A stretch of DNA of 64,000 bases from Candidatus Omnitrophota bacterium (GCA_023819145.1 JAMWCW010000003.1:78887-142886); one strand, 5' to 3'. Shown: positions 3,601-33,814, counted from the first letter of the stretch. The notes: generated by a model from the letters alone, not told the origin. Numbers and translations: made by a program.

Positions 3601-3633
3601 TTTTTACATTGAAGGGCTAGATTATTTATTATA

Positions 3634-17412: not shown

Positions 17413-18201
17413 ATGTTAGTGGCGCAGATAAAATTGAGAGAAGCGGGTAAAATTTCTCTTTTTGAGATAAGCGGAGAGATAAAACCGAAGATAGGAGATT
17501 TTGTGATTGTTGAACAGGATCGAGGTCTTGATTATGGACAGGTTCTTTCTGACCCAGAGACGGTTACAGATGTAGCCCAGGAAGAACCGGTATATAAAAT
17601 AGTGCGCATCGCTACCGCCGATGATTTAAGTCAAATAAATAAGAATAAACGCCGAATAAAAGGGGTTATAAATCTGTGTCTTAAAAAAATTGCTGAGCAT
17701 AAATTGGATATGAAATTGGTAGATGCGGAATATTCATTTGACCGCACAAAAATTATTTTTTATTTTACTGCCGAAGGAAGAATTGATTTCCGAGAACTAG
17801 TAAAAGATTTAGCCAAGGCATTTAAGGTAAGAATTGAATTGCGTCAGATTGGAGTGAGAGACGAAGCAAAAATGCTTGGAGGATTCGGCCCTTGTGGGAG
17901 GACTTTATGTTGTGCCACTTTCTTAAAAGATTTTGAACCGGTTACGATGCGGATGGCGAAAGACCAGAATTTACCCCTTAACCCCACGAAAATTTCTGGC
18001 TTATGTGGAAGGTTGATGTGTTGTTTAAGTTATGAAGCAGGATTGTATAAAGAGTTTTTACGCGGCCTACCTAAAGTGGGTGAATGGATAACAGTAGAAG
18101 GAGGGGTTAGGGGAAAGGTAGTGGAGTTAAATATTCTGAAACGAACTGCTACATTAGAATTAGAAGACGGAAGAAGAATAAATATAAGCTACAAGAAATA
18201 A
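17413..18201 (+). CDS. ricT: PSP1 domain protein RicT/YaaT
   Basis: PSP1 C-terminal domain with the conserved Cys cluster (CGRTLCC...CGRLMCCLSYE). Confidence 0.8.
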   Translation: MLVAQIKLREAGKISLFEISGEIKPKIGDFVIVEQDRGLDYGQVLSDPETVTDVAQEEPVYKIVRIATADDLSQINKNKRRIKGVINLCLKKIAEHKLDMKLVDAEYSFDRTKIIFYFTAEGRIDFRELVKDLAKAFKVRIELRQIGVRDEAKMLGGFGPCGRTLCCATFLKDFEPVTMRMAKDQNLPLNPTKISGLCGRLMCCLSYEAGLYKEFLRGLPKVGEWITVEGGVRGKVVELNILKRTATLELEDGRRINISYKK

Positions 18202-18352
18202 ATCCGAATGTCAAATTTTCGAAATCCGAAACCGGATTAGTTAAACCCTAAATCTTTAATTCAAGAACCCAAAAGATTTGATTTATTTAGGATTTAGAGT
18301 CTTGAACTTAGAGTTTGAACCGTATTTGTACTTGTTTTGAAATTATAAAGGA

Positions 18353-19873
18353 ATGGATAAGTTATATATCACTACACCGCTTTACTATGTTAACGCTACT
18401 CCCCATATTGGTCATTCTTATACCAATATTGCTGCCGATTGTTTAGCAAGGTTTATGCGTCTTAAAGGTAAAGAGGTATATTTTTTAACCGGAACCGATG
18501 AACATGGTCAGAAAATTTTTCGTTCTGCGCAAAATTCCGGTAAGAGTCCTCAGGAATTTGTAAACAGCATTGTTCCTCATTTTATTGATTTATGGAAAAC
18601 CCTTTCCATTTCTTATAATGACTTTATTCGCACTACTGAAGAAAGACACAAAAAGACAGTAAGTTTTGCTTTATCAAATCTTTATGATAAAAAAGATATT
18701 TACCTTACAGAATATAGTGGTTGGTATTGTACTCCCTGTGAAACATTCTGGACAGAGACCCAACTTGATTCTCCCCTTTGTCCTGATTGCCTGCGACCTT
18801 TAGAGGAACTAAAAGAAAAAAATTATTTTTTTCGTTTAGAAAAATACCGCAATTGGTTAATTAAACATATTGAGGAACACGCTTCTTTCATAAAACCCAT
18901 AAGCCGTAGAAACGAAATTCTTAAATTTTTAGAAAAACCCCTCAATGACTTATGCATTTCTCGTCCAAGAACACGTTTAGAATGGGGAATTCCTATCCCT
19001 TTTGATTCCGGATATGTTACCTATGTTTGGTTTGATGCTTTAATTAACTACATTTCCGCAATTGGTTTTGGTCAAGATGAGGGAAAATTTAGGAAATATT
19101 GGCCTTGTGATATTCATTTAGTAGGGAAAGATATTTTACGCCAGCATACAATTTACTGGCCAATAATGCTTCATGCTTTAGGAATTGAACTTCCAAAAAC
19201 TGTTTTTGCTCATGGTTGGTGGATGGTAGGAGAAGGGAAGATGTCTAAATCTAAAGGAAATATTGTTGACCCATTGGAGATGGTTAAAAAGCATGGTGAA
19301 GATGCCTATCGTTATTTTCTTTTAAGAGAAATTCCTTTTGGTCAAGATGGAAATTTTAGCGAGTCTGCTTTAATTTCACGCATAAATTCCGATTTAGCCA
19401 ATGATTTGGGGAATTTATATTTTAGGACCTTTGGAATGCTTGAAAAGTATTTTTCAGGAAAAATTCCTGAAGTTTCTCCTTTAGATAAAGTTTTTAAAGA
19501 AAAATTGGGAAAATTACCTCAAGAGTTAGAAGAAGCAATAGAAGATTTAAACTTTCAAGAAATGCTTATTTCTATTTGGGAGTTAGTTAATCTTGCCAAT
19601 AAATTTATTGAAGATTCTCGCCCTTGGGAACTTTCCAAAGAAAAAAAGATAGATGAACTTTCCTCCTTTCTGTATAACCTTATAGAAATTCTGCGTATTG
19701 TAACCATCTGTGTTTATCCCTTTATGCCTAAGTTTGCAGAAAAAGTCTGGAGACAATTAGGACAAAGAAAAGAACTTCAAGAAGTAAGTTTCTCAGAAAT
19801 TTATCAATGGGGTTTATCTATTCCAGGTACAGAAATAGAAAAAGGAACCCCTCTATTCCCAAGAATTATTTAA
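18353..19873 (+). CDS. metG: Methionyl-tRNA synthetase (short form)
   Basis: HIGH (PHIGHSYT) and KMSKS motifs, Cys4 knuckle; 506 aa. Confidence 0.9.
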   Translation: MDKLYITTPLYYVNATPHIGHSYTNIAADCLARFMRLKGKEVYFLTGTDEHGQKIFRSAQNSGKSPQEFVNSIVPHFIDLWKTLSISYNDFIRTTEERHKKTVSFALSNLYDKKDIYLTEYSGWYCTPCETFWTETQLDSPLCPDCLRPLEELKEKNYFFRLEKYRNWLIKHIEEHASFIKPISRRNEILKFLEKPLNDLCISRPRTRLEWGIPIPFDSGYVTYVWFDALINYISAIGFGQDEGKFRKYWPCDIHLVGKDILRQHTIYWPIMLHALGIELPKTVFAHGWWMVGEGKMSKSKGNIVDPLEMVKKHGEDAYRYFLLREIPFGQDGNFSESALISRINSDLANDLGNLYFRTFGMLEKYFSGKIPEVSPLDKVFKEKLGKLPQELEEAIEDLNFQEMLISIWELVNLANKFIEDSRPWELSKEKKIDELSSFLYNLIEILRIVTICVYPFMPKFAEKVWRQLGQRKELQEVSFSEIYQWGLSIPGTEIEKGTPLFPRII

Positions 19874-20516
19874 GGGATAACCGAAATCGGTAAGATAAAA
19901 ATTAAATGGGATATAAAAGATAAATATATTATAGAGAGGGTTTTAGGACATTACCAAAAATTTCTCTCTAAAAGTAAGAAAAAGGATATTGAGCTTAAGG
20001 TCTATAACCGAAATTTTTCCTTCCTAAAAAATTCCCTCTGATCACTACGCAAAGCTGGGATTATTTAAGAACAAAAGATAAATTATATTTTTGTTTTTCT
20101 CGTGGAGAAAATAGTTCGGTTGCTTGCGTATCTTGTGATTTTAAAAAGATAGATTTTTATACCCCTAACAAACATGGCCAATTACTTCTTTATCTTTTCC
20201 CTGAACTTCTTTATAGTCTAATTCTTCCTGAATTCAATGGCCTTCTAATTCATGCCGGTGGGGTAAAATTAAATAAAAAAATATTTGTTTTTTAGCCCCT
20301 ACAGAAGGAGGAAAATCAACTTTAGCAAAGCTTGCTTTAAAGAAAGGTTTTCCTGTTTTAAATAACGACCGCATAATTTTAAGAAAAATTAGAAATAAAT
20401 TTATTGCCTTTGGTAATCCTTGGCATGGTGAAGTAAGAAAGACTTCCTCGGATTATGGTAAGATAAAAGAATTATTCTTCTTAGAAAAGGCAGAGAAAAT
20501 TATATTAAGGAAATAA
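19874..20516 (+). pseudogene. HprK-related kinase (RiPP-cluster-associated HPr kinase-like P-loop protein), disrupted by at least two frameshifts
   Basis: Three frame segments translate to ...KWDIKDKYIIERVLGHYQKF..., ...LLIHAGGVKLNKKIFVF* and ...TEGGKSTLAKLALKKGFPVLNNDRIIL.... This matches the HPr kinase C-terminal fold (LxHASxV ... GxSGxGKSTLA). The frame switches fall in A6/A7 homopolymers at about 20026-20031 and 20275-20281. Confidence 0.45.
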
Positions 20517-20677
20517 ATAAACAAGAAATGTTTCTTTACCTTTTAGGAAATACTTTCTGTTTTAGGGGAGATAAAGACCATTACAAAAAGTTGTAGATAT
20601 TATTTTAGAATTGATAGATAATATAAAAGGATATACTTTAGGTTTTGACCCCACTGTAAGTATCTGGAGGTATTTAG

Positions 20678-20977
20678 ATGAAAGATTTAGATAAAGTTTT
20701 CAAGAAAAATACTGAGCTTGCCTGGAGAATAATTGATAATGAGACAATGATCATCCCCCTTGATGAGCAAACTGTAGATACCGAAAAAATTGAAGTTTTA
20801 AATCCTACTGCAACGTGTATCTGGGAATTAATTAATGGGGAAAATACATTAAAGGAGATAATTGAAAAAATATGTGAAGAATATGAAATTGAATATGAAG
20901 AGGCGGAAAAAGAGGTGCTCGGATTTATAAGAGATCTAAGGAATAAGAATTTGATTACCTTAGGAGGTGAGCGATGA
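20678..20977 (+). CDS. PqqD-family peptide chaperone (RiPP recognition element)
   Basis: 99-aa acidic protein with PqqD-like core (ETMIIPLD...VLNPTATCIWELINGENTLKEII...GFIRDLRNKNLI); stop overlaps the next ATG (ATGA). Confidence 0.65.
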   Translation: MKDLDKVFKKNTELAWRIIDNETMIIPLDEQTVDTEKIEVLNPTATCIWELINGENTLKEIIEKICEEYEIEYEEAEKEVLGFIRDLRNKNLITLGGER

Positions 20978-21111
20978 AGAAAAATAAGAAGAAATGGGAG
21001 AAGCCCAAGGTGAAAGAGATGAAGCTAAGGAGGGGAATAAGTCTTTACCTTTGCGACAAGTTTCCCCAGACGGCGCCCTACCATGATATTTGTGCTTCAG
21101 ACTTCTCATGA
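20974..21111 (+). CDS. Candidate RiPP precursor peptide, 45 aa (MKKNKKKWEKPKVKEMKLRRGISLYLCDKFPQTAPYHDICASDFS)
   Basis: Not in the six-frame track (<60 aa). AGGAGGTG RBS at 20962-20969 is 4 nt upstream; ATG is coupled to the PqqD stop; 22 nt before the radical-SAM gene. Lys-rich leader-like N-terminus, two Cys in the C-terminal half. Confidence 0.4.
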   Translation: MKKNKKKWEKPKVKEMKLRRGISLYLCDKFPQTAPYHDICASDFS

Positions 21112-21133
21112 TTTATACTAAAATTATATATGT

Positions 21134-22173
21134 ATGGTCTCAATTTGGTACAGAGGTGTTTTAAATAGAGTTACTGAAAATCTTATTCCTTTTCACTGCC
21201 TCTTAGAGCTTACCTACAGATGCAATCTCAAATGCCTGCACTGTTATGTGGTAAGGGATACTCAAAAAGAACTTACCACTCAGCAATTCTTAAGTATCTT
21301 AGATCAACTTAAGGAATTAGGAACTTTGTATCTCATCATTTCTGGAGGAGAACCGTTAGTAAGAACTTATTTTTTTGAAATTTGCAAACACGCTAAGAAG
21401 AATAATTTTGCATTACGAATATTTACGAATGCTTCCCTAATTAATACAAATATTGCGGAGAGGATTAGAGAACTTAAACCTTTAGTAGTAGAGGTGGGTT
21501 TATACGGGTTTGAAAAGACGCACGATGAAATAACCTAGGTTAGAGGTTCGTTCAAAAAGACTGTAGAAGGAATAAAGCTATTTAAGAAAAGAAATATCCC
21601 AGTTCTGGCAAAATGCGCTCTTTTAAATAAAAATATTTATGAAATTTGGAAATTGAAAGATTTTGTAGAAAAGGAGTTAAAAATAAAAATGCGGGGTATA
21701 GGAGGAGGTTTAGCTTTATCACCTTGTGATAATGGAGACTTAAGACCTTTAAATTATCTACCTACAGATGAGCAATTGAAATGGTATATGAAAGAAGAAA
21801 AAATATCTGAGGAGGAATCAAAACAGCCACCGGATTTTAGAAAACGCCGACTTAATTTTAACCTTTGTGGTTCAGGGATAAGCACTGTTAATATTACTCC
21901 CCATGGAGAAATCAATCCCTGTGTGCAAATAAGAACAAAAAATAAAATAAAATAAATCACAGAAGTATCAAAGATATCTGGCAAAATGCAGAGGAGTTTA
22001 AGTTACTTAGGCAAACGAAGATTAGAGATTTAGAAGAATGTCAAGATTGTGAATATGAAAAATATTGTTTCCGCTGTGCCGGGATTTCCTATCTACTTAC
22101 CGCTTCCTTCATCAAATCCTATCCTGATGCCTGCAGGCAAGCACGTATAAGAAAAGAAATTTACGAGGGCTAA
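21134..22173 (+). pseudogene. Radical SAM/SPASM-domain peptide-modifying enzyme, interrupted by an in-frame TAG (21536-21538) and a frameshift in an A-rich run (~21940-21956)
   Basis: CNLKCLHC (CxxxCxxC), GGEPL, HDEIT*VRGSFKKTVEGIKLF, and SPASM motifs (CGSGISTVNITPHGEINPC; CQDCEYEKYCFRCAG) in a shifted frame. Confidence 0.6.
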
Positions 22174-22246
22174 TTTATTTTACAACCATCTTCTTTCCTG
22201 CTATAATTTTAAACTAACTATTTCCTACTAACTACTATCTCCTAAT

Positions 22247-23614
22247 ATGTTAATTGATACCCATTGTCATTTGGATTTTTCAGAATTTGATAAGGATAGA
22301 GACGAGGTAATAAACCGTGCAAAGGATAGAGGAGTAAAATATTTTATTAATGTTTCCTCCGATTATTCTTCTAATTTAAAAAGTTTAGAGTTAGCTAACA
22401 AATACCCTGAAATTTATGTCTCTTTAGGAATCCATCCCCATTATGCTAAAGATGTGGATGAGAGTATTTTTGAAAGAATTAGAGAATTAGCTAAGGAAAA
22501 TAAGAAAGTAATAGCCATTGGAGAAGTTGGGCTTGATTTTTATAAAAATATCTCTCCAAAAGAAATTCAATTAGAAATTTTCAAGCGATTTTTAGAATTG
22601 GCAGAGGAATTAAATTTGCCCGTAATTGTCCATAATCGGAATGCCCCTAAAGAAATTTTAGAAGTAATTAAAAAATTTTCTTTGAAGGGAGTTTTTCATT
22701 GTTTTTCTGGAGACAACGATTTTCTAAAAGAGGTTCTTAATTTAGGTTTTTATATTTCTTTTACTGCTAATATAACTTATCCCAACGCAGAAAATCTCTG
22801 TGAGATAGTAAAAGAAACTCCCATTGAAAAAATACTTCTTGAGACCGACTCTCCCTTTTTATCCCCTCAAGAAAAGAGAGGTTTGCGTAATGAACCAGCA
22901 AATTTGGTCTATTTAGTTGAGAAATTAGCAGAATTAAAAGGTTTAAGCAAAGAAGACATTATACGCATTAGCGGTTTGAATGCAGTTCAATTATTTAGAC
23001 TTCCGTTTGAAGATAAACCAAAAATTGTTTATCCCATAAGAGATTCTCTATATGTAAATATCACCAATCGCTGTACAAACAATTGCTCTTTTTGTGTAAG
23101 GTTTTATACTGACTATGTTAAAGGGCACAACTTAAAATTAAGAAATGAGCCATCTTTTGAGGAAATTATAAAAGAATTAGAAAAAGAAGATTTCAGAAAA
23201 TATAAAGAAGGGGTTTTTTGCGGTTATGGAGAACCTTTTCTAAGACTTGAGATAGTTAAAAAAGTAGCAAAATATCTAAAAGATAAAGGGATTCGGGTAA
23301 GAGTTAATACCAATGGGCAAGGAAACTTAATTCATAAAAGAAACACTGTTCCTGAATTAAAAGATTTAATTGATGAGGTTTTTGTAAGTTTAAATGTGGA
23401 TAATGAGGAAAGTTATGCTAAAATATGTAAGCCTGATTTTAAGGAGGGTGTTTTTAATAAAATAAAAGAATTTATCTTAGAGTGCAAAAAATACATCCCT
23501 TATGTTACAATTACTTTTATAGATTTACCAGAGGTAGATTTAGAAAGATGTGAGAAGATTGCTAAAGAATTGGGAGTTAATCTTAGAATTAGAAGATTAC
23601 ATCAGGTGGGATAG
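22247..23614 (+). CDS. tatD: TatD-family hydrolase fused to a C-terminal radical-SAM domain
   Basis: N-terminal TatD motifs (IDTHCHLDF...GEVGLD...HCFSG...ETDSPF). C-terminal ~200 aa carries NRCTNNCSFC (CxxxCxxC), GYGEPF and NTNG motifs, as in the TatD-associated radical-SAM protein family. Confidence 0.75.
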   Translation: MLIDTHCHLDFSEFDKDRDEVINRAKDRGVKYFINVSSDYSSNLKSLELANKYPEIYVSLGIHPHYAKDVDESIFERIRELAKENKKVIAIGEVGLDFYKNISPKEIQLEIFKRFLELAEELNLPVIVHNRNAPKEILEVIKKFSLKGVFHCFSGDNDFLKEVLNLGFYISFTANITYPNAENLCEIVKETPIEKILLETDSPFLSPQEKRGLRNEPANLVYLVEKLAELKGLSKEDIIRISGLNAVQLFRLPFEDKPKIVYPIRDSLYVNITNRCTNNCSFCVRFYTDYVKGHNLKLRNEPSFEEIIKELEKEDFRKYKEGVFCGYGEPFLRLEIVKKVAKYLKDKGIRVRVNTNGQGNLIHKRNTVPELKDLIDEVFVSLNVDNEESYAKICKPDFKEGVFNKIKEFILECKKYIPYVTITFIDLPEVDLERCEKIAKELGVNLRIRRLHQVG

Positions 23615-23623
23615 ATATTAAGA

Positions 23624-23666
23624 ATTCGTAATCCGTAACTCGTAATCCGTAATTCGAAACGAAATT
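23624..23666. repeat. Tandem 14-bp direct repeat (TCGTAATCCGTAAC x2) plus a TTCGAAAC tail; member of a dispersed intergenic motif family
   Basis: attcgtaatccgtaactcgtaatccgtaattcgaaacg read directly; related copies at 18201-18238, 26866-26886 and 32591-32617. Confidence 0.5.
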
Positions 23667-24698
23667 ATGTTTAAAAAATTGATTTTGGAAAATCAGGTTT
23701 ATTTTTTACTCTTGTTTTTAAGTTTGGTTTTGGGTATTTTTTCTTATCTAAATCGCGATTACTTAGGAATATCGCCGTTAGAAGAAGCTTTTAAAGGAGA
23801 AATTTCGCAATATGAAAACATTAGTTCCGAAGGTTTTGTTAAAAATATCGAACAGAATATTCAGATTTCTTATCTTCTAAAAATTACTTTTTTCGTTGGG
23901 TTTTTATTTTTTATAATGGGGGTATATTTTTGTTTTTCTTTTTTATTTGCTTTATTTAGAGGAAAGGTCACGCTTTTTTCTCAAGATTTCCCTGCTGTAA
24001 ATTGGCAAATTTTAGATATTTTTCGGGTAGTTATAGTCATAATTTTCTTTACAAGTTTTTTAAAGGTAATTGAGCCAATTTTTTTTAGAATATTTGGAAT
24101 TAACATCTTTGTCCGTTTTATGCTCCATGTCCTATTGTTTGACATTTTTTGCTTGGGGTTAATTATCTATTTTGTATATCAAAAACATCGCTCAACGCTT
24201 ATCAGTCTTGGTCTGGGCTTGAGTAATTTTATAAACAATATTTTGCTTGCTTTCCTTCACTATTTAGGAGTAATTCCTCTTCTGTTTTTATCTATATTTT
24301 TCTCTTTTTCTTTCACTCAACTCTTTAAATATAAACCGGAAATTTCTCCGCTCTTCTATTTCTTTTTTCTTCCTCAGCCAAAATTACTGATTTTCTTTAC
24401 TACAATTTTTATTGCGATTATCGGTCCCGTAATCGAAGAGATTTTCTTTAGAGGGTTTTGCTATCCCGCTTTACGCAGTAAAATTGGTCCTTTAAAGGCA
24501 ATGGTTTTAGTTTCTTTATTTTTTGCACTTTTACATATGAATGTGATAGGCTTTTTACCCATTTTTACTTTGGGTTTACTTCTTGTTTATCTCTATGAGA
24601 AGACACATTCCCTTTTCTCTTCAATTGGTGTACATATAATTCATAATAGTTTAATTCTCTATCTTGTTTTTCTCTATCGAGCTCTTTTGCTAAAATGA
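23667..24698 (+). CDS. CPBP-family intramembrane glutamic protease (CAAX protease/bacteriocin-processing family)
   Basis: Polytopic membrane protein with the EExxxR motif (VIEEIFFRGF) and FxxxH motif (FFALLHMN). Confidence 0.75.
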   Translation: MFKKLILENQVYFLLLFLSLVLGIFSYLNRDYLGISPLEEAFKGEISQYENISSEGFVKNIEQNIQISYLLKITFFVGFLFFIMGVYFCFSFLFALFRGKVTLFSQDFPAVNWQILDIFRVVIVIIFFTSFLKVIEPIFFRIFGINIFVRFMLHVLLFDIFCLGLIIYFVYQKHRSTLISLGLGLSNFINNILLAFLHYLGVIPLLFLSIFFSFSFTQLFKYKPEISPLFYFFFLPQPKLLIFFTTIFIAIIGPVIEEIFFRGFCYPALRSKIGPLKAMVLVSLFFALLHMNVIGFLPIFTLGLLLVYLYEKTHSLFSSIGVHIIHNSLILYLVFLYRALLLK

Positions 24699-25801
24699 GT
24701 TCTCGGCTAGCCATTTTAAAGTGTTTTGATTACTCCCCTGCATTTATATCAGAGTCAATAGAAAAACTTTTTTATCTTTTAGGGGGGATAGAGAAGTTTG
24801 TTAAACCACAGGATAAAATTTTTATTAAACCCAACCTTTTATCAGCAACCTCCCCCCACAGAGGAATAACTACCCATCCTTTATTGGTTAAGGAAGTGGC
24901 AAAGAGATTCAAAGAAAAAGGAGCAGAAGTGTTTATTGGAGATAGTCCTGGGGGAGGGATAAATATCGATGAGGTTTATGAAAAAACGGGAATGCAAAAG
25001 GTTGCTAAAGAACTGGGATTAGAATTGGTTAAATTTGATAAGATTAAAAAGGTTAAAAATTACCCTCTTGCAGAGATAGTTCTTACATGCGATCGTTTTA
25101 TTTCCCTGCCAAAATTAAAGACACATTCCCTAATGGTAATTACGGGAGGAATAAAAAATTCTTTTGGACTTGTTCCGGGCATATATAAAACCGAGCTGCA
25201 TTTAAGGTTTCCTCGTCCAAAAGAATTTAGTAAAGTTATTGTAGATGTATTCAGTTTAAGAAAACCGGATTTGGTAATTGTAGATGGAGTTGTTTCTATG
25301 GCAGGAGAAGGTCCGGCGGGAGGAGTCTTGAAAAATACAGGAATAATTCTAGGAAGTTCTGATGCGGTAGCAATAGATTCGGTTCTGGCAAAACTTATGG
25401 GAATTAATCCCTTTAAAATTCCTACTATCTACGAAGCATATAAAAGAGGATTGGGGAAAGTAGATAAAATAGAAATGATGGGCGAGGATTTGAATTCCGT
25501 TTTATTTAAAGATTTTTCCTTACCTCGCTATTCTTTTCTCAATATTATTCCTCAAACAATTCTCAAATTGGGGGGAAGCTTAATTAGAACTTATCCTTTT
25601 ATAAATGATGTTCTATGTCAAAGGTGTGGGATTTGTATTAAAGGGTGTCCTGCAGGAGCAATTAAAATGGCGTCCCAAAAGATAACAATTGATTATAAAT
25701 TTTGTATAAAATGCCTCTGCTGTTATGAATTCTGTCCTCATAAAGCAATTTCTTTAAAGAAGGGAATTCTTTTAAAGTTATTGGACTTGGTAAGGAGATA
25801 A
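24695..25801 (+). CDS. DUF362-domain iron-sulfur protein with tandem 4Fe-4S ferredoxin motifs
   Basis: CQRCGICIKGCP and CIKCLCCYEFCP ferredoxin-type clusters; start overlaps the CPBP stop (ATGA). Confidence 0.65.
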   Translation: MSSRLAILKCFDYSPAFISESIEKLFYLLGGIEKFVKPQDKIFIKPNLLSATSPHRGITTHPLLVKEVAKRFKEKGAEVFIGDSPGGGINIDEVYEKTGMQKVAKELGLELVKFDKIKKVKNYPLAEIVLTCDRFISLPKLKTHSLMVITGGIKNSFGLVPGIYKTELHLRFPRPKEFSKVIVDVFSLRKPDLVIVDGVVSMAGEGPAGGVLKNTGIILGSSDAVAIDSVLAKLMGINPFKIPTIYEAYKRGLGKVDKIEMMGEDLNSVLFKDFSLPRYSFLNIIPQTILKLGGSLIRTYPFINDVLCQRCGICIKGCPAGAIKMASQKITIDYKFCIKCLCCYEFCPHKAISLKKGILLKLLDLVRR

Positions 25802-25825
25802 ATTTGTGCTATTATAAAAATAGAA

Positions 25826-26863
25826 ATGTCTTTTCAAACATTAAAGTGGCACAAAAATAAATTAATTTTACTTGACCAGCGAAGACTCCCTTTTGAATGT
25901 ATTTATGTCGAATGTGAAGATTTAAAAAGTGTCTGGAAGGCAATTAATACGCTTACCGTAAGGGGCGCGCCGCTTATTGGAATAACTGCAGGTTTTGGAG
26001 TATATTTGGGGGTGAAGGATTCTTCTGCCCAGCATCACTCTTCCTTTAAAAAAGATTTTGATAAAGTAGTCTCCTATTTAGCTACTTCTCGCCCTACAGC
26101 AGTAAATCTTTCTTGGGTATTAGAAAGGATGAAAAATTTAGTGGAGAAAGAGAAAGATAAGCCTATTAAAGAATTAAAAAAAATAATCCTTAAAGAAGCG
26201 GAAAAAATTATGGAAGAAGAGAAACTTGCTTGCAGAAAACTTGCTGAATGGGGGGCGAAGTTGATTAACGATGGTGAAAGAATCCTTACTTATTGTAACA
26301 CAGGAATGTTAGCTACAGTTGAATATGGAACAGCTTTGGGAGCCATTTATCGGGCAAAGGAGAAAGGGAAAAATATAGAGGTTTTTGTTTGTGAAACAAG
26401 ACCATTTTTACAAGGAGCAAGATTAACTGCTTGGGAGTTGAAAGAAAATAAAGTTCCTTTTACTTTAATTTGTGATAATATGGTAGGAACTTTAATTGCC
26501 CGAGGTAAAGTAGATAAGATTTTTGTAGGTTCTGACAGAACTGTAGCTAACGGGGATACTGCCAATAAGATAGGAACCTATAATCTTGCAGTTATTTCTT
26601 ATTACCATAAAATACCTTTCTATGTAGCTTGTCCTTTGTCAAGTTTCGATTTTAGAATTAAAAGCGGTAAAGATATTCCCATTGAAGAAAGACCCCAAGA
26701 GGAGATGCTCTATATAAGGGATAAACGCATTGCTCCCTATGGAGTAAAAGCATATTATCCTTGTTTTGATATTACTCCAGGAGAACTAATTACTGCCATT
26801 GTTACAGAAAAAGGTATATTTAAACCACCGTATACAAAGAGTTTACAAAAGTTAAAACTCTAA
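25826..26863 (+). CDS. mtnA: S-methyl-5-thioribose-1-phosphate isomerase (MtnA/eIF-2B-like)
   Basis: eIF-2B alpha/beta/delta-fold motifs (TYCNTG, VGSDR, ANKIGTY); 345 aa. Confidence 0.75.
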   Translation: MSFQTLKWHKNKLILLDQRRLPFECIYVECEDLKSVWKAINTLTVRGAPLIGITAGFGVYLGVKDSSAQHHSSFKKDFDKVVSYLATSRPTAVNLSWVLERMKNLVEKEKDKPIKELKKIILKEAEKIMEEEKLACRKLAEWGAKLINDGERILTYCNTGMLATVEYGTALGAIYRAKEKGKNIEVFVCETRPFLQGARLTAWELKENKVPFTLICDNMVGTLIARGKVDKIFVGSDRTVANGDTANKIGTYNLAVISYYHKIPFYVACPLSSFDFRIKSGKDIPIEERPQEEMLYIRDKRIAPYGVKAYYPCFDITPGELITAIVTEKGIFKPPYTKSLQKLKL

Positions 26864-26909
26864 ATACGAAATCCGAAATTCGAAACTGTTAAATAAAGGA
26901 GTAGAAAAA

Positions 26910-27821
26910 TTGAAGAGGAGGATAAACGTAGAGGATATTGGTGAGTTTGGACTTATAAATTATTTAAGTAAAACCATTAAGGATAATAAATCAGTAGTTA
27001 AAGGAATTGGCGAGGATGCAGCAGTGATAAATTATTCTAAAACAAAATACTTGCTTTTTACTACAGATATGCTTATAGAGAATGTGCATTTTAAAATAAA
27101 AGAATCCAGTCCTTATCAGATTGGCTGGAAGGCTTTAGGTTGTTCTTTATCGGACATTGCGAGTATGGGGGGAATACCTCTTTATGCTCTAATTTCCTTA
27201 GGAGTTCCTAAAAATTTATCTTTTGATTTTATTAAAGGCATTTATTCAGGAATTAGAAAATTGGCAAATATTTTTAAGGTAAATATTGTGGGTGGAGATA
27301 CAGATAGAGCAGATAAGTTAATTGTTGATGTATTTTTAGTTGGTGAAGTAGAAAAAAAGAAGGTAGTTTATCGTAGTGGGGCAAAGGTAAACGACATCAT
27401 TGCGGTTACGGGGAGTTTGGGAAATAGTTACAAAATAAAAAAACATCTCAAATTTTTACCCCGGATAAAAGAAGCAAGATTTTTGGTTAATAATTTCAAA
27501 ATAAATTCAATGATTGATGTTTCTGATGGTTTAAGTACTGATTTGTTTCATATTTTAAGAGAAAGTAAAAAGGGGGCAATAATCTTTGACAAAAAACTTC
27601 CTTTAGCAAGAAAGGCTACTATTGAGCAGGCTTTAAATGAGGGAGAGGATTTTGAGCTTTTGTTTACCCTTTCAGAAAAAGAGGCAATAAGACTTTCTAA
27701 AAATAAGAAAATAGCCGTTCGTTTTATTGGAAAAGTTACTGAAGATAGTGGAAAGATTATATTTTATAGTAGAAAAGGTGTTATAAACGGAATAAGACCC
27801 AAAGGTTTTAGGCATTTTTAG
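26910..27821 (+). CDS. thiL: Thiamine-monophosphate kinase (PurM-like superfamily)
   Basis: N-terminal EFGLI motif and AIR-synthase-related fold; 303 aa. Confidence 0.65.
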   Translation: MKRRINVEDIGEFGLINYLSKTIKDNKSVVKGIGEDAAVINYSKTKYLLFTTDMLIENVHFKIKESSPYQIGWKALGCSLSDIASMGGIPLYALISLGVPKNLSFDFIKGIYSGIRKLANIFKVNIVGGDTDRADKLIVDVFLVGEVEKKKVVYRSGAKVNDIIAVTGSLGNSYKIKKHLKFLPRIKEARFLVNNFKINSMIDVSDGLSTDLFHILRESKKGAIIFDKKLPLARKATIEQALNEGEDFELLFTLSEKEAIRLSKNKKIAVRFIGKVTEDSGKIIFYSRKGVINGIRPKGFRHF

Positions 27822-28283
27822 ATGAAAGTTTTTATTACTAAAAGCGAAGCGGAGACAAAAAAACTTGGGGAAAATTTAGGGAAAAATTTAATTTCTGGAG
27901 ATGTTCTTTGCTTAGTTGGAGAACTTGGTTCAGGAAAAACGGTTTTGGTAAAAGGGATTGCTCGGGGCTTGGGAATCTTGGAAGAGCTTATAAACAGTCC
28001 TTCATTTATTCTGATTAGGGAATATTCTTCAAAATTAAACCTTTATCACTTTGACCTTTATCGATTGAAGACATTGGGAGAAATAGAATCCCTGGGTTGG
28101 GAAGAATATTTATCCAAAAAAGGGGTTTTGGTTATTGAGTGGGCAGACAAAATGGAGGAAGTTTTACCTCAGGAACACTTGCGTATTGAGATGAAAATTT
28201 TTAGCGAAAAAAAGAGAAAAATTAAGCTAATTCCTAAAGGAAAAAGATATAAAGAGTTGATTAGGAAATTAAAATTTAGTTAA
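27822..28283 (+). CDS. tsaE: tRNA t6A37 biosynthesis ATPase TsaE (YjeE)
   Basis: P-loop GELGSGKT, 153 aa, immediately upstream of tsaB. Confidence 0.8.
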   Translation: MKVFITKSEAETKKLGENLGKNLISGDVLCLVGELGSGKTVLVKGIARGLGILEELINSPSFILIREYSSKLNLYHFDLYRLKTLGEIESLGWEEYLSKKGVLVIEWADKMEEVLPQEHLRIEMKIFSEKKRKIKLIPKGKRYKELIRKLKFS

Positions 28284-28291
28284 TCTGTGTT

Positions 28292-28975
28292 ATGAAAATA
28301 CTTAGTTTAGATTCTTCTACAAAAATTTTAACCATGGCAATAAACGAGAGTCGTGATGTTGTTTTTGAGATTGAACGCGAAGCAGAATTTAGCTGTAATA
28401 AGCTTTTATTTTCTTTACTTAAAGAAATGTTTGAGAAGACCAGAATTTCTTTAAAAGATATTGAGCTTTTTGCTGTAGGCATAGGACCAGGTTCATTCAC
28501 AGGAGTGCGTGTGGCTTTGAGTGTCATGAAAACATTCTCTTATTTGAAAAATAAACCTATAATAGGAATTTCTACTTTAGATACTATTGCCTCAAACCTT
28601 AAAGGCGAAGTTAAAGAATTGATTTGCCCCATAATGGATGCCAAAAGGGAAAAACTCTATAGTGCTATTTATCGCAAAGTGGATGAGAAATTAGAAAGAA
28701 TTTCTGATTATTTATTGATTTCTTTAATTGATTTGTTCGAGAAATTAGATAAGGATGTTTTTTTCTTGGGAGATGGAGTTAATCTTTACCGAAAGGAAAT
28801 TATTAGAAATAGACCAGAAGCCAAAATAGCCAGTTATAATTTATATTACCCTAAGGCAGGAAATTTAGGTATAATTGCTTATGAACGTTTTAAGGAAGGA
28901 AAAGTTGACTCAGTTTTTGAACTTCTACCTTTATATCTTTATCCTAAGGAATGCAGTATAAAAACTAAGAACTGA
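28292..28975 (+). CDS. tsaB: tRNA t6A37 biosynthesis protein TsaB (YeaZ)
   Basis: MKILSLDSST N-terminus and Kae1/YeaZ-type ASKHA fold; 227 aa. Confidence 0.8.
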   Translation: MKILSLDSSTKILTMAINESRDVVFEIEREAEFSCNKLLFSLLKEMFEKTRISLKDIELFAVGIGPGSFTGVRVALSVMKTFSYLKNKPIIGISTLDTIASNLKGEVKELICPIMDAKREKLYSAIYRKVDEKLERISDYLLISLIDLFEKLDKDVFFLGDGVNLYRKEIIRNRPEAKIASYNLYYPKAGNLGIIAYERFKEGKVDSVFELLPLYLYPKECSIKTKN

Positions 28976-28976
28976 A

Positions 28977-30122
28977 ATGGGAGAGATTATTGATATAAAA
29001 ATAAAAAGATATAGTCGGCAAACCTGGGCAGAGGTTGATTTGTCTTCTTTAGGATTTAATCTTAAGCAGATAAAAAACATTTTATCTTCCGAGACAAAGA
29101 TTATGCCCATTGTTAAAGCAGATGCCTATGGGCATGGTTTGGTTGAGGTAAGTAGGTATCTTGTCTCACAAGGAACAGAACAGTTGGGGATTGCGACGGT
29201 AGATGAAGGAATTGAATTAAGAGAAAATGGATTAGGCATATCTTTGTTTCTATTAGGCAATATTTTCCCTGAAGAGGCCGAAGCAGTTATTGAATACAAT
29301 CTTATTCCTACTTTGTGTAACTTAGAAGTAGCCCAAAGGCTCAATGAAGTAGCCCAAGAAAAAAATATTTTTGTAAAAACACATGTTAAGATTGATACGG
29401 GGATGGGAAGAATTGGAGTCTCTTATAAAGAAGCAAAGGAATTTTTCTTAAAAATTAAAGAATTTTCTCATTTAGTTATAGAAGGTCTCTGGACGCATTT
29501 TGCCTCCGCAGAAGATGACTCTTTTACTAGTCTTCAGCTTACAAGATTTAATTTTGTTTTAGAAAGTTTGAAACAATTAGGAATTGGCTTTAACTATATC
29601 CATACCGCAAATTCCATGGCTCTATTTAGAAATAGAGAAACACATTTTAATTTAGTTAGACCGGGAATTACTCTTTATGGAGTTTATCCCGATGTTTCTT
29701 TAAGAGAAATTGTAGAGTTAAAGCCAGCAATGAGTTTAAAGACAAAGATTGTTTTTTTAAAAAAAGTTTATCAAGGAGAGCCAATTAGTTATGGAAGGAC
29801 ATTTTTTACTCAGAGAGAAAGTCTTATCGCTACCTTACCTATTGGTTACGGAGATGGATATAATTGGCTTCTATCCAATAAAGGAAGAGTATTAGTAAGG
29901 GGTCAATATGCTCCTATTGTAGGAAGGGTTTGCATGGACCAGATAATGGTTGATGTGACTGATATCCCCGGAGTTTCTTTAGGAGATGAGGTAGTTTTAT
30001 TGGGTAGGCAAGGAGATTTAGAAATTACTGCTGAAGATCTAGCAGAGCTTTCAGGAACCATTTCCTATGAAGTTCTTTGTAGAATTGGGTCAAGGGTTCC
30101 GCGAATATACAAGGGTGTCTAA
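28977..30122 (+). CDS. alr: Alanine racemase
   Basis: PLP-binding region (VKADAYGHG), 381 aa. Confidence 0.9.
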   Translation: MGEIIDIKIKRYSRQTWAEVDLSSLGFNLKQIKNILSSETKIMPIVKADAYGHGLVEVSRYLVSQGTEQLGIATVDEGIELRENGLGISLFLLGNIFPEEAEAVIEYNLIPTLCNLEVAQRLNEVAQEKNIFVKTHVKIDTGMGRIGVSYKEAKEFFLKIKEFSHLVIEGLWTHFASAEDDSFTSLQLTRFNFVLESLKQLGIGFNYIHTANSMALFRNRETHFNLVRPGITLYGVYPDVSLREIVELKPAMSLKTKIVFLKKVYQGEPISYGRTFFTQRESLIATLPIGYGDGYNWLLSNKGRVLVRGQYAPIVGRVCMDQIMVDVTDIPGVSLGDEVVLLGRQGDLEITAEDLAELSGTISYEVLCRIGSRVPRIYKGV

Positions 30123-30771
30123 ATTTAATTTTAAAAATTTAGATAAAATTATTGAGATTTTACGTAAAGAGGTAAGACAGTATCGCAAGCCGGTAGTAAG
30201 TTTTGTTGCCGATTATTCAAAAAACAACCCCTTCTTAGTTTTAATTTCTTGTCTTCTATCTTTAAGGACTCAAGATAAAACTACGGATAAAGCTACTAAA
30301 GGATTATTTTCCTTGGCAACAACTCCTCAAGAGATGTTAAGACTTTCATTAAGAGAAATTGAGAAAGCAATCTATCCTGTAGGATTTTATCGAGTTAAGG
30401 CAAGAAATATCAAAAGGATCTGTAAAATTTTAATTGATAGGTTTGATGGTAAGGTGCCTAGTGATTTAGAAACACTTCTATCTTTACCGGGGGTAGGAAG
30501 AAAGACTGCCAATTTGGTATTAACCGAAGGGTTTAATAAATTGGGGATTTGTGTAGATACGCATGTGCATCGAATTTCTAATCGCTTAGGGTTTGTAGAG
30601 ACAAAAACCGCCAAAGAAAGCGAGTTTGCTCTACGCAAATTATTACCCCAAAAATACTGGAAAGAATTTAACTATCTTTTGGTTACCTACGGGCAGAATG
30701 TCTGTAAACCCCTAAGACCATTGTGTGCTAAGTGTAAAATTTATACTTATTGTTTGAGAAAAGGAGTATAA
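30067..30771 (+). CDS. nth: Endonuclease III (HhH-GPD DNA glycosylase with 4Fe-4S cluster)
   Basis: HhH motif (LPGVGRKTANLVL), catalytic Lys/Asp region, C-terminal CX6CX2CX5C. The track start overlaps alr; the real start is probably near 30125. Confidence 0.8.
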   Translation: MKFFVELGQGFREYTRVSKFNFKNLDKIIEILRKEVRQYRKPVVSFVADYSKNNPFLVLISCLLSLRTQDKTTDKATKGLFSLATTPQEMLRLSLREIEKAIYPVGFYRVKARNIKRICKILIDRFDGKVPSDLETLLSLPGVGRKTANLVLTEGFNKLGICVDTHVHRISNRLGFVETKTAKESEFALRKLLPQKYWKEFNYLLVTYGQNVCKPLRPLCAKCKIYTYCLRKGV

Positions 30772-30779
30772 TTATATAA

Positions 30780-31508
30780 GTGGAGCAATTTTTTATAGAG
30801 AAAGAGAATATAAAAGGAGATTGTCTTTTTATAAGAGAGTCAGAGGCCCATCACCTAAAGGATGTTTTGAGATACAAAAAAGGAGGGATTTTAAATCTCT
30901 TTGATGGAGAAGGTGGGGTATATCGAGGAGAAATTTTAGAGTTAAGAGGGAAAGAAGTAAAGGTAAAAATATTAAATAAAAAATGCAAAGAGAAAAATCC
31001 ACCCTTTTTCCACTTAGTGCAAGCAATTCCCAAAAGAGAAAAGATGGATTTAGTTGTTGAGAAAGTTACAGAGTTAGGAGTTGAGGAAATCATTCCAGTA
31101 ATTACTGAAAGAACTGTAATTCTTCCTGATAGAGAAAAGGGGGAAAAGCTTCTTGAACGTTGGAGAAAAATTTCTCTTTCGGCAGTAAAACAATCAAAAA
31201 GACTTTTTTTACCCAAAATAAATGAGATTAAAGAATGGTCTCAAGTTTTTAAAGAAATACCCGCTTCAGCGAGTTTATTTATTCCTTCTTTAGAAGAAAA
31301 GGGAATAGCTTTTAAGGAGATTGATTGGGGGAAGCTTAGTAAAGATATTTATATCTTTATTGGTCCCGAAGGAGATTTCACAAAAAAAGAAATCCAGAAG
31401 GCAAAAGAAAAAGGAGCAATTCCTGTGAGTTTAGGAGAGGCGGTTTTAAGAAGCGAGACTGCGGCAATATATTTATTATCGGTTTTAAATTATGAACTGA
31501 AATCCTAA
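30780..31508 (+). CDS. rsmE: 16S rRNA (uracil1498-N3)-methyltransferase RsmE
   Basis: PUA-like N-terminus and SPOUT C-terminus (IFIGPEGDFT); GTG start. Confidence 0.75.
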   Translation: MEQFFIEKENIKGDCLFIRESEAHHLKDVLRYKKGGILNLFDGEGGVYRGEILELRGKEVKVKILNKKCKEKNPPFFHLVQAIPKREKMDLVVEKVTELGVEEIIPVITERTVILPDREKGEKLLERWRKISLSAVKQSKRLFLPKINEIKEWSQVFKEIPASASLFIPSLEEKGIAFKEIDWGKLSKDIYIFIGPEGDFTKKEIQKAKEKGAIPVSLGEAVLRSETAAIYLLSVLNYELKS

Positions 31509-31509
31509 G

Positions 31510-32598
31510 ATGAAAAAAAGGCGTATTGGAATATTAACCGGTGGAGGAGATTGTCCGGGAATAAATGCGGTAATCCGGGCAGTAGTAAAAACTGCCATAA
31601 ATAATTATGGATGGGAGATTATAGGCATTGAGGATGGTTATTTAGGTTTGATTGAAAACCGCATAAGAGTCCTCACTTATGATGATGTTTCAGGAATTTT
31701 GACTTTAGGAGGGACAATCTTGGGAACTTCTAATAAGACCAATCCCTTTGCTCAGCCTGTTAAATTTAAGAAAAGAGTTATTTTCCGTGACCTCTCCAAA
31801 CGCTGTATAGAGAATTTTAAAAAGATGCGCTTAGAATCGCTGGTCTGTATTGGCGGAGACGGAACCCTGAGGATTGCTTATAAATTTCTTGAGAAAGGGC
31901 TTCCGATAATTGGAATTCCTAAAACCATTGACAATGATGTTTGGAAAACAGACTTAACTTTTGGTTTTGATTCGGCAGTAATAACTGCAACCGAGGCAAT
32001 AGATAAGATCCATACTACCGCCCAGTCACATCACCGCGTAATGATTGTGGAAGTGATGGGAAGGTATGCAGGATGGCTTGCTTTATCATCAGGAATTGCT
32101 GCTGGGGGAGATATAATTTTAATTCCTGAAATTCCCTTTGAGATTGGTAAGATTTGTGAGAAAGTAAAAGAGAGAAATAAAAAAGGGAAGAGATTCAGTA
32201 TCATTGTGGTCGCAGAAGGAGCTCATCTTAAAGGGGGGAAGATGGTTGTGCAGAAAGTAGTAAAGGATAGTCCCGATCCCTTGAGATTAGGAGGAATAGG
32301 GAATTTATTGTCAGAGGAAATTGAAGAAAAAACAGGTATTGAATGCCGCGTGACTGTTTTGGGGCATCTTTTGAGAGGAGGGAGTCCATCTCCTTTTGAT
32401 AGAATTTTAGGCTCAAGGTTTGGAGAATATAGCATAAATTTGATTAAGGGATATAATTTTGGGCAAATGGTTGCTCTGCAAGGAAAAGAGGTGATTTCGG
32501 TGCCTTTAAAGGAGGCGGTGAGTCAGATTAAAAAAGTTCCTCTCGACCATCAATTAATTAAAGTTGCTCTTTCAGTAGGAACATATTTTGGGATTTAG
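31510..32598 (+). CDS. pfkA: 6-phosphofructokinase
   Basis: ILTGGGDCPGINAV and GGDGT motifs; 362 aa. Confidence 0.85.
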   Translation: MKKRRIGILTGGGDCPGINAVIRAVVKTAINNYGWEIIGIEDGYLGLIENRIRVLTYDDVSGILTLGGTILGTSNKTNPFAQPVKFKKRVIFRDLSKRCIENFKKMRLESLVCIGGDGTLRIAYKFLEKGLPIIGIPKTIDNDVWKTDLTFGFDSAVITATEAIDKIHTTAQSHHRVMIVEVMGRYAGWLALSSGIAAGGDIILIPEIPFEIGKICEKVKERNKKGKRFSIIVVAEGAHLKGGKMVVQKVVKDSPDPLRLGGIGNLLSEEIEEKTGIECRVTVLGHLLRGGSPSPFDRILGSRFGEYSINLIKGYNFGQMVALQGKEVISVPLKEAVSQIKKVPLDHQLIKVALSVGTYFGI

Positions 32599-33814
32599 GA
32601 ATTCGGATTTCGAATTTAAACTTATGAAGAGAAGCGTTAAATTTTATACTTTTGGCTGTAAGGCAAATCAGTATGATACGCAGGTTTTACGAGAAAAATT
32701 TCTTTCCCAAGGTTTTGTAGAAACAGATAATGGTTTTGCTGATGTGTATGTAGTAAATACCTGTGTAGTTACAAAAAGGGCAGAATCGGAGTGCCAAGTT
32801 TTGTTAAATAAATTAAAAAGAAAATTTCCTTATAAAGAGGTTATTCTTAAGGGATGCTTAAAGAGGCTTATAGAAAAAGAGCATAAGGATAAACGGTTCT
32901 CTAAGGACTTGGCAGAAGAAAAGATTACCTTTTTTGCAAAACACAAACGTGCATTTCTAAAAATTCAAGATGGATGTGATAATTTTTGTGCTTATTGCAT
33001 CGTTCCTTATGTAAGGGGAAAATCGACTAGTAAACCTAAGGAATTAGTCATCGAGGAGTTTAAGGGACTTTTGAGAAACGGCTACAAAGAGGTTGTTTTG
33101 ACGGGAATTTGTTTGGGGGATTACGGCAAGGATTTTTTGCCTCCCTCAACCCTTGTGGCATTACTGAAAGAATTAGAGTCTATAGAAGGAATTTTTCGTA
33201 TCCGTTTAAGTTCTCTTGATCCCCAGTATATCGATAATGAGCTGATTGATTTTTTGGCAAAATCTAAGAAAATTTGTCCTCATTTACATATTCCTTTTCA
33301 AAGCGGAGACGATTTTATTTTAAGAAAAATGAACCGTAAATATAGAAGCGATTTTGCTTATGATATAATAAAAAGAATAAGAAAGAAAATACCGGGGATA
33401 ATTTTTACTACTGATATTATGGTAGGTTTTCCTCAGGAAAAAGAAGAAAATTTTAGTAACACTTTAACACTTTTAGAATATTTAAAACCCCTTAAGATTC
33501 ACATTTTTAGATTCAGTCCGCGTCCAGGAACACCAGCGGAAAGTTTTCTTGGAAGAGTTAATTTAAAAGAGGAATTAGAAAGATTTAATTTGCTAAAAGA
33601 GTTGGATAAAAAATTTCGCGATTTTAATTTGAGAAAGTTTTTGAATAGAAAAATTTCTTTGCTTGTTGAAAGAAGAATTTCAAAGGGGGTATTTTCAGGG
33701 CACAGTGAGCATTACTTTAATGTGCTTCTAGAAGCTGAGGGAAAATTAATTGGTGAAATTGCTGAGGTAAAGGGAAAAGAAATCAAAGAAGATAGGCTTC
33801 TGTGTACTTTATAA
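32588..33814 (+). CDS. Radical-SAM tRNA methylthiotransferase (MtaB/MiaB family)
   Basis: MTTase N-terminal Cys triad, radical-SAM CAYCIVPY, C-terminal TRAM domain; the true start is probably MKRSVKF at about 32624. Confidence 0.8.
   Translation: MGFRNSDFEFKLMKRSVKFYTFGCKANQYDTQVLREKFLSQGFVETDNGFADVYVVNTCVVTKRAESECQVLLNKLKRKFPYKEVILKGCLKRLIEKEHKDKRFSKDLAEEKITFFAKHKRAFLKIQDGCDNFCAYCIVPYVRGKSTSKPKELVIEEFKGLLRNGYKEVVLTGICLGDYGKDFLPPSTLVALLKELESIEGIFRIRLSSLDPQYIDNELIDFLAKSKKICPHLHIPFQSGDDFILRKMNRKYRSDFAYDIIKRIRKKIPGIIFTTDIMVGFPQEKEENFSNTLTLLEYLKPLKIHIFRFSPRPGTPAESFLGRVNLKEELERFNLLKELDKKFRDFNLRKFLNRKISLLVERRISKGVFSGHSEHYFNVLLEAEGKLIGEIAEVKGKEIKEDRLLCTL

Follow-up and report, generated by a model that had tools for sequence, protein, structure and literature searches.

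Repeats with a unit of seven nucleotides are, as reported by Mrazek et al. 2007 and relayed in two later papers (PMC4679880, PMC4692102), the most abundant long simple-sequence repeats (LSSRs) in many prokaryotes, where they lie mostly in non-coding DNA, and their origin was there proposed to be slippage tied to a 7-nt polymerase contact. Particular versions include the GGGAATC arrays of Xanthomonas and the GGGGAYT arrays of Nostoc, whose preference for four units was ascribed to the G-quadruplex (Rehm et al. 2015, PMC4692102), the TAACTGA arrays that precede start codons in members of the Beggiatoaceae, Cyanobacteria and Bacteroidetes, for which horizontal spread by a mechanism not known was considered possible (MacGregor 2015, PMC4679880), and 49 elements of four GGGACCG heptamers situated between and within genes of Geobacter metallireducens (Aklujkar et al. 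2009, PMC2700814). The present analysis concerns four sites in a 64-kb stretch of DNA (JAMWCW010000003.1:78887-142886; hereafter the window) that forms part of a 144-kb contig from a metagenome-assembled genome (MAG) of Candidatus Omnitrophica, namely the sequences at the ends of ricT (site 1), the tatD-radical SAM (tatD-rSAM) fusion gene (site 2), mtnA (site 3) and pfkA (site 4). These sites hold degenerate members of a dispersed heptamer-array family, in which about 4 units, each a permutation of AAATCCG/AATCCGT, form an element of 28-33 bp. The AAATCCG family represents a previously undescribed member of the bacterial heptanucleotide repeats, and a literature search for its exact DNA, RNA or encoded peptide strings recovered no description of it.

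The original prediction had recognized the four sites, all of which are present in the window, as occurrences of a 13-mer following unrelated genes. The recurrence is genuine, but the repeating entity is a head-to-tail heptamer, (Y/A)CG(A/T)AA(Y), rather than a single 13-mer, and it is found as five units at site 2, four at site 3, four in the reverse orientation at site 4, and two units with an inverted partner at site 1 (Table 1); the paired copies of AAATCCGAA and the hairpin at site 1, as well as the reversal of the pfkA copy, can be read directly from the DNA as predicted. The two-unit pattern CGWAAYYCGWAA has 7 exact matches in the window against 0.04 expected, with a maximum of 1 in 100 shuffles, and a four-unit profile requiring at least 17 of 20 core positions recovers only sites 2, 3 and 4, against an expectation of 0.05, indicating a single dispersed family rather than coincidence. 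TRF likewise reports a period of 7, with copy numbers of 4.9 (site 2) and 3.4. All exact two-unit matches fall in spacers, which make up about 6.7% of the window, and the copies overall lie either in spacers or across stop codons. Counts of the 9-mer core of the predicted motif (5 against 2.07 expected, 5 being reached in 6 of 100 shuffles) and of the 13-mer with up to 2 mismatches (12 against 7.5) are not significant; the 9-mer frequency test thus gives a false negative in the window, because the signal resides in the 7-nt tandem register.

Synteny around the sites is kept in relatives, and their orthologous junctions reveal how the copies were gained. At site 3, the TAA that ends mtnA (26861-26863) is part of the decayed first unit, and the array is followed by a Shine-Dalgarno sequence, AAAGGAG, and by the thiL start at 26910. 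The mtnA/thiL junction of three relatives (L127, L004 and L001 in our numbering, with 80%, 77% and 75% protein identity) has no array; the genes abut or overlap, and the alignment displays a clean gap of 25 columns. A far closer relative, L126, which is 97.8% identical to the window in DNA over 2741 nt without a gap, carries at the position of site 3 a purer array, TCGAAATCCGAAATCCGAAATTC, and the gain of this copy predates the split from L126. Translation reads through the L126 array, endowing MtnA with an 11-residue tail, ...KLKLEIRNPKFKTAK (P0006), whereas MtnA of the window (P0001) terminates in ...KLKL because its first unit has TAA where L126 has GAA. The two arrays are equal in unit number and differ by substitutions only, at 4 of about 31 nt (13%), compared with 2.2% of the flanking positions, i.e. 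a six-fold difference. Identical arrays with the same unit number are also seen in L001-L003, which are 99.9-100% identical samples, although these two close-strain comparisons are weak evidence that unit number is stable.

At site 4, the ancestral pfkA terminus (...GGGATTTAG) supplies the first unit, the stop codon TAG (32596-32598) lies inside the array, and the remaining units occupy the 25-nt spacer before a MiaB-like gene (ATG at 32624). The corresponding spacers of L001, L156-158 and L004 (82-85% identity, PfkA providing relatives at no more than 85%) are 0, 6 or 15 nt long and array-free; the ancestral pfkA end, GGGATTTA(A/G), itself resembles one unit, and the array adjoins it. Site 2 is located in a 52-nt spacer between tatD-rSAM (stop at 23612-23614) and a CPBP/Rce1-like gene, with a partial unit reaching up to the ATG of the latter at 23667 and no Shine-Dalgarno sequence, and the tatD/CPBP spacers of L004 and L001 contain unrelated sequence from which the array is absent; here the nearest relatives, as judged by the CPBP protein, are at most 67% identical. 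Sites 2-4 are thus insertions of about 25-35 bp gained after the split from relatives with 75-85% protein identity, and site 1 was probably gained likewise. Taken together, the mtnA/thiL, pfkA/miaB-like and tatD/CPBP junctions and the rate comparison show lineage-specific insertions that subsequently decay by substitution.

Two further features of these relatives deserve mention. In L001 (16372-16513; also in L002 and L003), the rsmE/pfkA spacer of the same operon holds a different array, (AAATCAA)4, whose inverted counterpart lies some 70 nt further downstream, and the window has a spacer of 1 nt at this place. Within positions 1 to about 100 of L126, 58 differ from the window, against the 97.8% identity beyond, which may be an artefact of the contig end or mark a recombination boundary inside mtnA.

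The family extends far beyond this lineage. A collection with one genome per species, scanned with the single pattern CGWAATCCGWAAYYCGWAA, yielded at least 120 loci, which by their record titles belong to about 16 groups of phylum rank; the figures that follow refer to the matches listed, all ascertained with that pattern, and positions relative to genes are approximate, being derived from our own crude open reading frame (ORF) caller. The groups comprise Acidobacteriota, Verrucomicrobiota, Planctomycetota, Chloroflexota, Bacteroidota, several Candidate Phyla Radiation (CPR) lineages, Desulfobacterota, Binatota, Nitrospirota, Gemmatimonadota, Myxococcota, Cyanobacteriota, Spirochaetota, Bdellovibrionota, Pseudomonadota and Bacillota, and one match (L016), to the CGTAAT variant, comes from a cultured isolate, Chitinophaga fulva G-6-1-13. 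The matches are more than fortuitous 19-mers, and most extend to perfect arrays, the commonest of which, AAATCCGAAATCCGAAATCCGAAATCCGAAATC, spans 32-33 nt and is identical across genomes of 31-70% GC. Among 150 arrays of at least 3 units, four units predominate (76 arrays), followed by three (58), five (10), seven (4) and six (2). Arrays are intergenic in 86 of the 150 cases (57%), against about 16% non-coding sequence (p = 6e-30), and many abut stop codons, while others directly precede start codons, as is also seen in viral contigs. Their orientation shows no bias, either between co-directional genes (22 vs 20) or relative to the downstream gene (37 vs 42). Arrays also cluster locally: L098 has 6 of them within 8 kb, and a 14-kb part of the window contains 3-4. 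Viral contigs contain (CGAAATC)3 in 22 loci, against 1 and 5 for two composition-matched permutations, an excess of about 4-20x. The register itself is also distinctive: in 845 kb of matched loci, perfect runs of at least 3 units number 133 for period 7, of which 36 lie outside the ascertained family, against 14 for period 4 and 2, 5, 2, 1 and 2 for periods 5, 6, 8, 9 and 10, respectively. Other heptamers, such as AATCCGC, AATTCCG and AAATCAA, behave likewise in the same genomes.

Inverted pairs are the commonest arrangement of the family outside the window. With a strict unit definition, a relaxed one having proved too permissive, 53 adjacent arrays are inverted within 150 nt, against 8 in direct orientation at 15-150 nt (p = 3e-9), and some of these pairs bracket short cores, a canonical terminator or entire small genes. 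Thus, in L021 arrays stand on both sides of a canonical GC-rich hairpin with a T-tract. Two MAGs, one of Acidobacteria (SZAS-13) and one of Phycisphaerae, have inverted (AAATCCG)4 arrays on either side of a partly conserved intergenic core of about 58 nt or of a small gene, which encodes a BMC shell protein or what by eye is a four-helix-bundle protein (L098 5125-5231 and 7482-7587; L123 5237-5638; L073 2669-3134); the mRNA of a small gene so bracketed would have complementary 5' and 3' ends.

Of the arrays, 39 are situated well within predicted ORFs, 28 being sense-oriented, and some were checked as in-frame insertions in real genes. In IleRS, about 10 residues are extra relative to PDB 8c9e, directly before the DVWF(D/E)SG motif; additional residues are likewise present in LolD when compared with 7v8l; and further in-frame cases are found in PheT, a PEP synthase/PEP-utilising enzyme, a glycosyltransferase, an FtsX permease and ArsA. 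The AAATCCG/CGAAAT form contains no start or stop codon in any of the six frames and encodes the same repeated hydrophilic heptapeptide, KSEIRNP, in each of the three sense frames because 7 and 3 are coprime; the CGTAAT variant, of which site 2 is made up, has a TAA in one frame. We also considered the lack of start and stop codons as the cause of the choice of this heptamer and rejected it, the property being shared by 276 of 1170 heptamer classes, among them the control AATACCG, which is nevertheless 22x rarer in viral contigs. Complementarity to rRNA and a likeness to the tRNA T-loop (TTCGAATCC vs TTCGAAATCC) were dropped as untestable resemblances. Two Verrucomicrobia MAGs (L082 at about 6390-6420 and L110 at about 3600-3640) carry (AAATCCG)4 at the same position upstream of an LLTNGIGGMA motif, in a large ORF of glycogen-debranching type by eye; the shared position may reflect an inherited insertion or a hotspot, and the array may fuse two once-separate genes.

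Table 1. Heptamer arrays, associated features and possible remnants in the window (positions counted from its first nucleotide)
Feature	Position	Strand	Description
Site 1a	18200-18208	+	AAATCCGAA; first two bases are the end of the ricT (PSP1) stop TAA at 18199-18201
Site 1 direct repeat	18222-18230		AAATCCGAA again, 22 nt from first copy
Site 1b	18219-18232	+	Two tandem units, TCGAAAT CCGAAAC, then inverted CGGATT, to 18238
Site 1b hairpin	within 18219-18238		AATCCG-AAAC-CGGATT
Site 1c	18285-18300	-	Degenerate reversed units, ATTTAGGATTTAGAGT
Site 2	23626-23660	+	TCGTAAT CCGTAAC TCGTAAT CCGTAAT TCGAAAC; five tandem units
Site 3	26859-26886	+	TCTAAAT ACGAAAT CCGAAAT TCGAAAC; four units; 19/20 core positions
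Site 4	32590-32617	-	Plus-strand reading GGGATTT AGGAATT CGGATTT CGAATTT; four units; 17/20 core positions
Possible fifth remnant	19881-19894	+	CCGAAAT CGGTAAG, 8 nt past metG stop; one mismatch to two-unit pattern
Possible decayed intragenic copy	44920-44947	-	GCGTAATCTTTAATCCGTTGACCGAAAT; 16/20 core positions

Segment 1c has 81-92% complementarity to 18219-18231 and 18242-18260, so that site 1 is a decayed inverted pair. At 18294-18320, upstream of metG and overlapping the inverted arm of site 1, a 14-nt sequence is duplicated in tandem (TTAGAGTCTTGAAC x2). The possible fifth remnant matches 15 of 20 core positions, which is the chance level and weak on its own, and also forms a mini-hairpin, ACCGAAATCGGT; the intragenic candidate lies inside the 3' part of an ORF (44127-45044), and 0.67 matches of its quality are expected by chance. 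The window has 36.5% GC, and Pfam supports the gene names PSP1/RicT (with the PSP1 domain on 17413-18201), MetRS, TatD-radical SAM fusion, CPBP/Rce1-like, ThiL, PFK and MiaB-like. The genes flanking the arrays are, as originally stated, unrelated, a search for a functional theme among them having found none. Near-consensus promoters at 22179-22207 and 33886-33914 bound a region with no terminator-like site between them, and sites 2, 3 and 4 are therefore intercistronic spacers of one probable operon of about 22.2-33.8 kb.

Compared with the described systems, the AAATCCG arrays display the defining attributes of the LSSR class, in that tandem 7-nt units occur beyond chance and are enriched in non-coding DNA, with period 7 dominant in both; variation in unit number between close strains was not seen, which under the definition of Mrazek et al. 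bears on mechanism and not on class membership. The slippage proposed for that class predicts genome-specific units of variable copy number, whereas the AAATCCG family has one unit across about 16 phyla and a four-unit mode. With the repeats of Xanthomonas and Nostoc it has in common an AATC/GATT core and the four-unit mode, but those are G-rich, whereas AAATCCG contains one G per unit (or one CC on the opposite strand) and thus lacks the four or more tracts of at least three G that define a G-quadruplex. As judged from its sequence, this heptamer is unfit for a quadruplex and still shows the four-unit rule, which therefore probably has another cause; the G-quadruplex explanation would accordingly not be general, a point that seems to be new. 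The TAACTGA repeats are also intergenic heptamers of 2-6 units, often placed before starts that lack a Shine-Dalgarno sequence and sometimes over stop codons or ORF ends, and they too are patchy across phyla with no evident transfer mechanism. They differ in carrying stops in each of the three forward frames and in being strongly biased towards the forward orientation, whereas the AAATCCG form has no stops, no bias, and in-frame copies in conserved proteins; their start-proximal placement is reproduced at site 2, while site 3 has a Shine-Dalgarno sequence and site 4 is reversed. The Geobacter elements also consist of four tandem heptamers, but are GC-rich, reported from a single genome and annotated as putative regulatory RNA without test. 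A further parallel is provided by the STRR heptamers of heterocystous cyanobacteria, which Mazel and coworkers are said to have described in 1990 as dispersed, non-coding and of unknown function. These are likewise tandem heptanucleotides dispersed in non-coding DNA, but reportedly have other units (CCCCAGT, TTGGTCA and CAACAGT), are restricted to one clade and often form longer arrays.

The original prediction had also invoked REP/MITE-like elements, and this holds as far as a small multicopy insertion is concerned. REP elements are imperfect palindromes that form a stable stem-loop, possess a conserved tetranucleotide head and are accompanied by a cognate RAYT transposase (IS200/IS605-like); those of enterobacteria and pseudomonads, and the BIMEs that they form part of, resemble the present family in being about 30 bp long, multicopy, placed after stops within operons and often in inverted pairs. 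However, REPs are palindromic, whereas one heptamer array taken alone consists of direct repeats and lacks a fold. MITEs have terminal inverted repeats, target-site duplications and a length of about 50-500 bp, in contrast to direct repeats of 28-35 bp.

We consider it moderately probable that the copies of the family, inserted at gene ends in this lineage, are now passive and decaying, an origin through errors in a 7-nt register being favoured. The arrays would arise during replication or repair, either by slippage, as suggested by Mrazek et al. 2007, or by template switching that copies an existing array, and the latter would account for the frequency of inverted pairs; such processes fit the period-7 excess and the inverted pairs, and a dedicated trans-acting enzyme might also be the source. 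From the codon properties of the unit and the compactness of the genome, insertion is expected to be tolerated only in spacers, at extreme 3' ends and in surface loops. In mtnA, the array first lengthened the protein by 11 residues, the state kept in L126, and a G-to-T change in the first unit then created the present stop codon of the window. The copies would lengthen intercistronic spacers within one operon, part cistrons that overlap or abut in relatives and leave an A-rich unstructured leader ahead of the next gene, with only site 1 being able to form a modest hairpin. Most likely, the window copies do nothing specific now and simply decay by point substitution.

Several observations weigh against this account. 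Slippage alone leaves unexplained the recurrence of one heptamer, at about 33 nt, in phyla ranging from 31 to 70% GC, and also the excess of (CGAAATC)3 in viral contigs over permuted heptamers of matched composition (22 loci vs 1 and 5). It further predicts a falling length distribution rather than a four-unit mode, and changes in unit number between close strains, of which the two comparisons show none. The prevalence of inverted over direct close pairs (53 vs 8) could reflect selection for hairpins, i.e. function, and three of the four window copies are sense-oriented within one operon, a sample too small to argue against a local role. In addition, copy density is known for 64 kb of a 144-kb contig, and the gene positions in the 120 or more loci stem from the crude ORF caller.

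An alternative that appears unlikely is that the arrays are multivalent binding platforms, with one heptamer per site, which tune translation or transcription of the neighbouring genes. The binder could be an OB-fold protein acting on RNA, for instance ribosomal protein S1 or one of the cold-shock proteins, or a ribbon-helix-helix protein polymerising on heptads of DNA. In the omega protein of pSM19035, a member of the latter type, the operators are direct and inverted 7-bp heptads, and the direct and inverted heptads of the arrays would be compatible with such a scheme. Consistent with binding, the arrays are single-stranded, unstructured and positioned right before start codons, as at site 2, which abuts its ATG, and at similar start-abutting cases in other genomes and viral contigs; their discrete four-unit size hints at a footprint of fixed extent, one and the same heptamer is encountered in many phyla, and MacGregor 2015 put the same idea forward for TAACTGA repeats (PMC4679880). 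On the other hand, a shared protein or RNA binding site, as originally suggested, is difficult to reconcile with the lack of any transcription-related orientation bias, with in-frame copies inside the housekeeping proteins IleRS and PheT and in LolD, with orthologous sites that have no copy, and with the six-fold faster change of site 3 than of its flanks. No common functional theme links the flanking genes, and no candidate protein was identified, so that the evidence leans against this possibility.

Alternatively, the AAATCCG cassette, which comprises about 4.7 units or 33 bp, might be an actively propagating micro-element, written by a templated process and carried between phyla by phages, a speculative proposal that we hold to be improbable. 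The writer may be a repeat-synthesising polymerase, a reverse transcriptase or template-switch repair. To our knowledge, an element of 33 bp would rank among the smallest insertions known. If this were true, the rule of four units of seven, which also applies to Xanthomonas, Nostoc and Geobacter, would represent the footprint of the machinery rather than a consequence of the G-quadruplex or of regulation. Decidedly doubtful is the related idea that the cassette of about 33 bp is a true non-autonomous mobile element, placed by a trans-acting enzyme, such as a reverse transcriptase or primase-polymerase that copies a repeat template, or a nuclease of HUH/RAYT type that targets the hairpin of an inverted pair, and spread horizontally, e.g. 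by phages. The identity of the perfect 32-33-mer in about 16 phyla of widely differing GC content would imply recent arrival in each of them, and the viral-contig excess, the appearance of arrays as insertions in conserved genes, their local clustering, and the surplus of inverted pairs, which recalls REP doublets, all point in the same direction. Against it, junctions read by eye, though not systematically, showed no terminal inverted repeats, target-site duplication or flanking motif; no associated gene was found, the window not having been specifically searched for a transposase; and the like behavior of other heptamers in the same genomes points to a sequence-independent 7-nt process.

That the arrays are terminators, Rho-loading sites or 3'-end stabilising structures is very unlikely, in spite of their placement directly past stop codons, the higher content of C than G on the sense strand of sites 1-3, the capacity of site 1 and many inverted pairs elsewhere to form hairpins, and the arrays flanking a canonical terminator in L021. 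No terminator-like site, i.e. a GC-rich hairpin with a T/U tract, was found at any array in the window, which together with the folds bears out the view that the missing T-tracts set these elements apart from classical terminators. RNA folding of sites 2-4 gave structures no better than those of shuffled sequences (z = +1.6, +0.65 and +0.36, respectively), and the 141-nt region of site 1 (18190-18330) is modestly structured (z = -2.0), its centroid fold retaining just the 6-bp hairpin AATCCG-AAAC-CGGATT. Rfam contains no family matching the window arrays at E up to 1, nor one matching eight array-rich loci from other genomes at the gathering threshold. Moreover, sites 2-4 are operon-internal, and in relatives the genes that follow them adjoin or overlap the preceding gene; site 4 is reversed, and 28-35 nt is short for a Rho-loading site. 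Chance resemblance among AT-rich low-complexity spacers, to which the lack of significant enrichment of the 9-mer and 13-mer alone might point, can be dismissed with near certainty given the excess of the two-unit pattern and the four-unit profile, the inheritance of the purer site 3 array by the sister strain L126, and the presence of the same array type in over 100 other genomes.

Some additional features of the neighbourhood were noted in passing. The promoter at 22179-22207 (TTTACA-17-TATAAT with an upstream TG) stands ahead of the TatD-rSAM gene, whose G-free leader (22213-22245) is another heptamer-like array, of ACTAACT type with 4.7 copies; it ends within one base of the ATG and lacks a Shine-Dalgarno sequence, like the start-proximal TAACTGA repeats of Beggiatoaceae. 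The preceding region, 19874-22246, has the appearance of a decayed cluster of the ribosomally synthesized and post-translationally modified peptide (RiPP) type, with a PqqD-like ORF (20678-20977), a radical-SAM fragment (21134-21538) and long stretches lacking intact ORFs, and in its place L001 has intact ScmC-like, PqqD, peptidase S8, TPR and rSAM-SPASM genes. In the window, TatD and the radical-SAM domain are combined in a single ORF of 455 residues (22247-23614); in L001 (6946-7832), TatD is separate, and its 110-nt 3' spacer still codes for a remnant of the rSAM C-terminus (KCEEIAQGLGVNFQIGKLH).

The motifs of the window are thus to be annotated neither as regulators nor as terminators, but as insertion scars, which is why gene junctions differ from those of relatives, why the MtnA C-termini differ in two strains, and why some cistrons are uncoupled. 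On a broader scale, heptanucleotide repeats have remained unexplained since 1990 and 2007 and have been described clade by clade. Here, one heptamer family spans about 16 phyla and viral contigs, with the same 32-33-mer, a four-unit mode, an excess of inverted pairs and in-frame insertions in essential enzymes. The reasons for seven and for four, and the manner in which the arrays spread, thus become testable, both through comparative genomics and with the culturable carrier Chitinophaga fulva.

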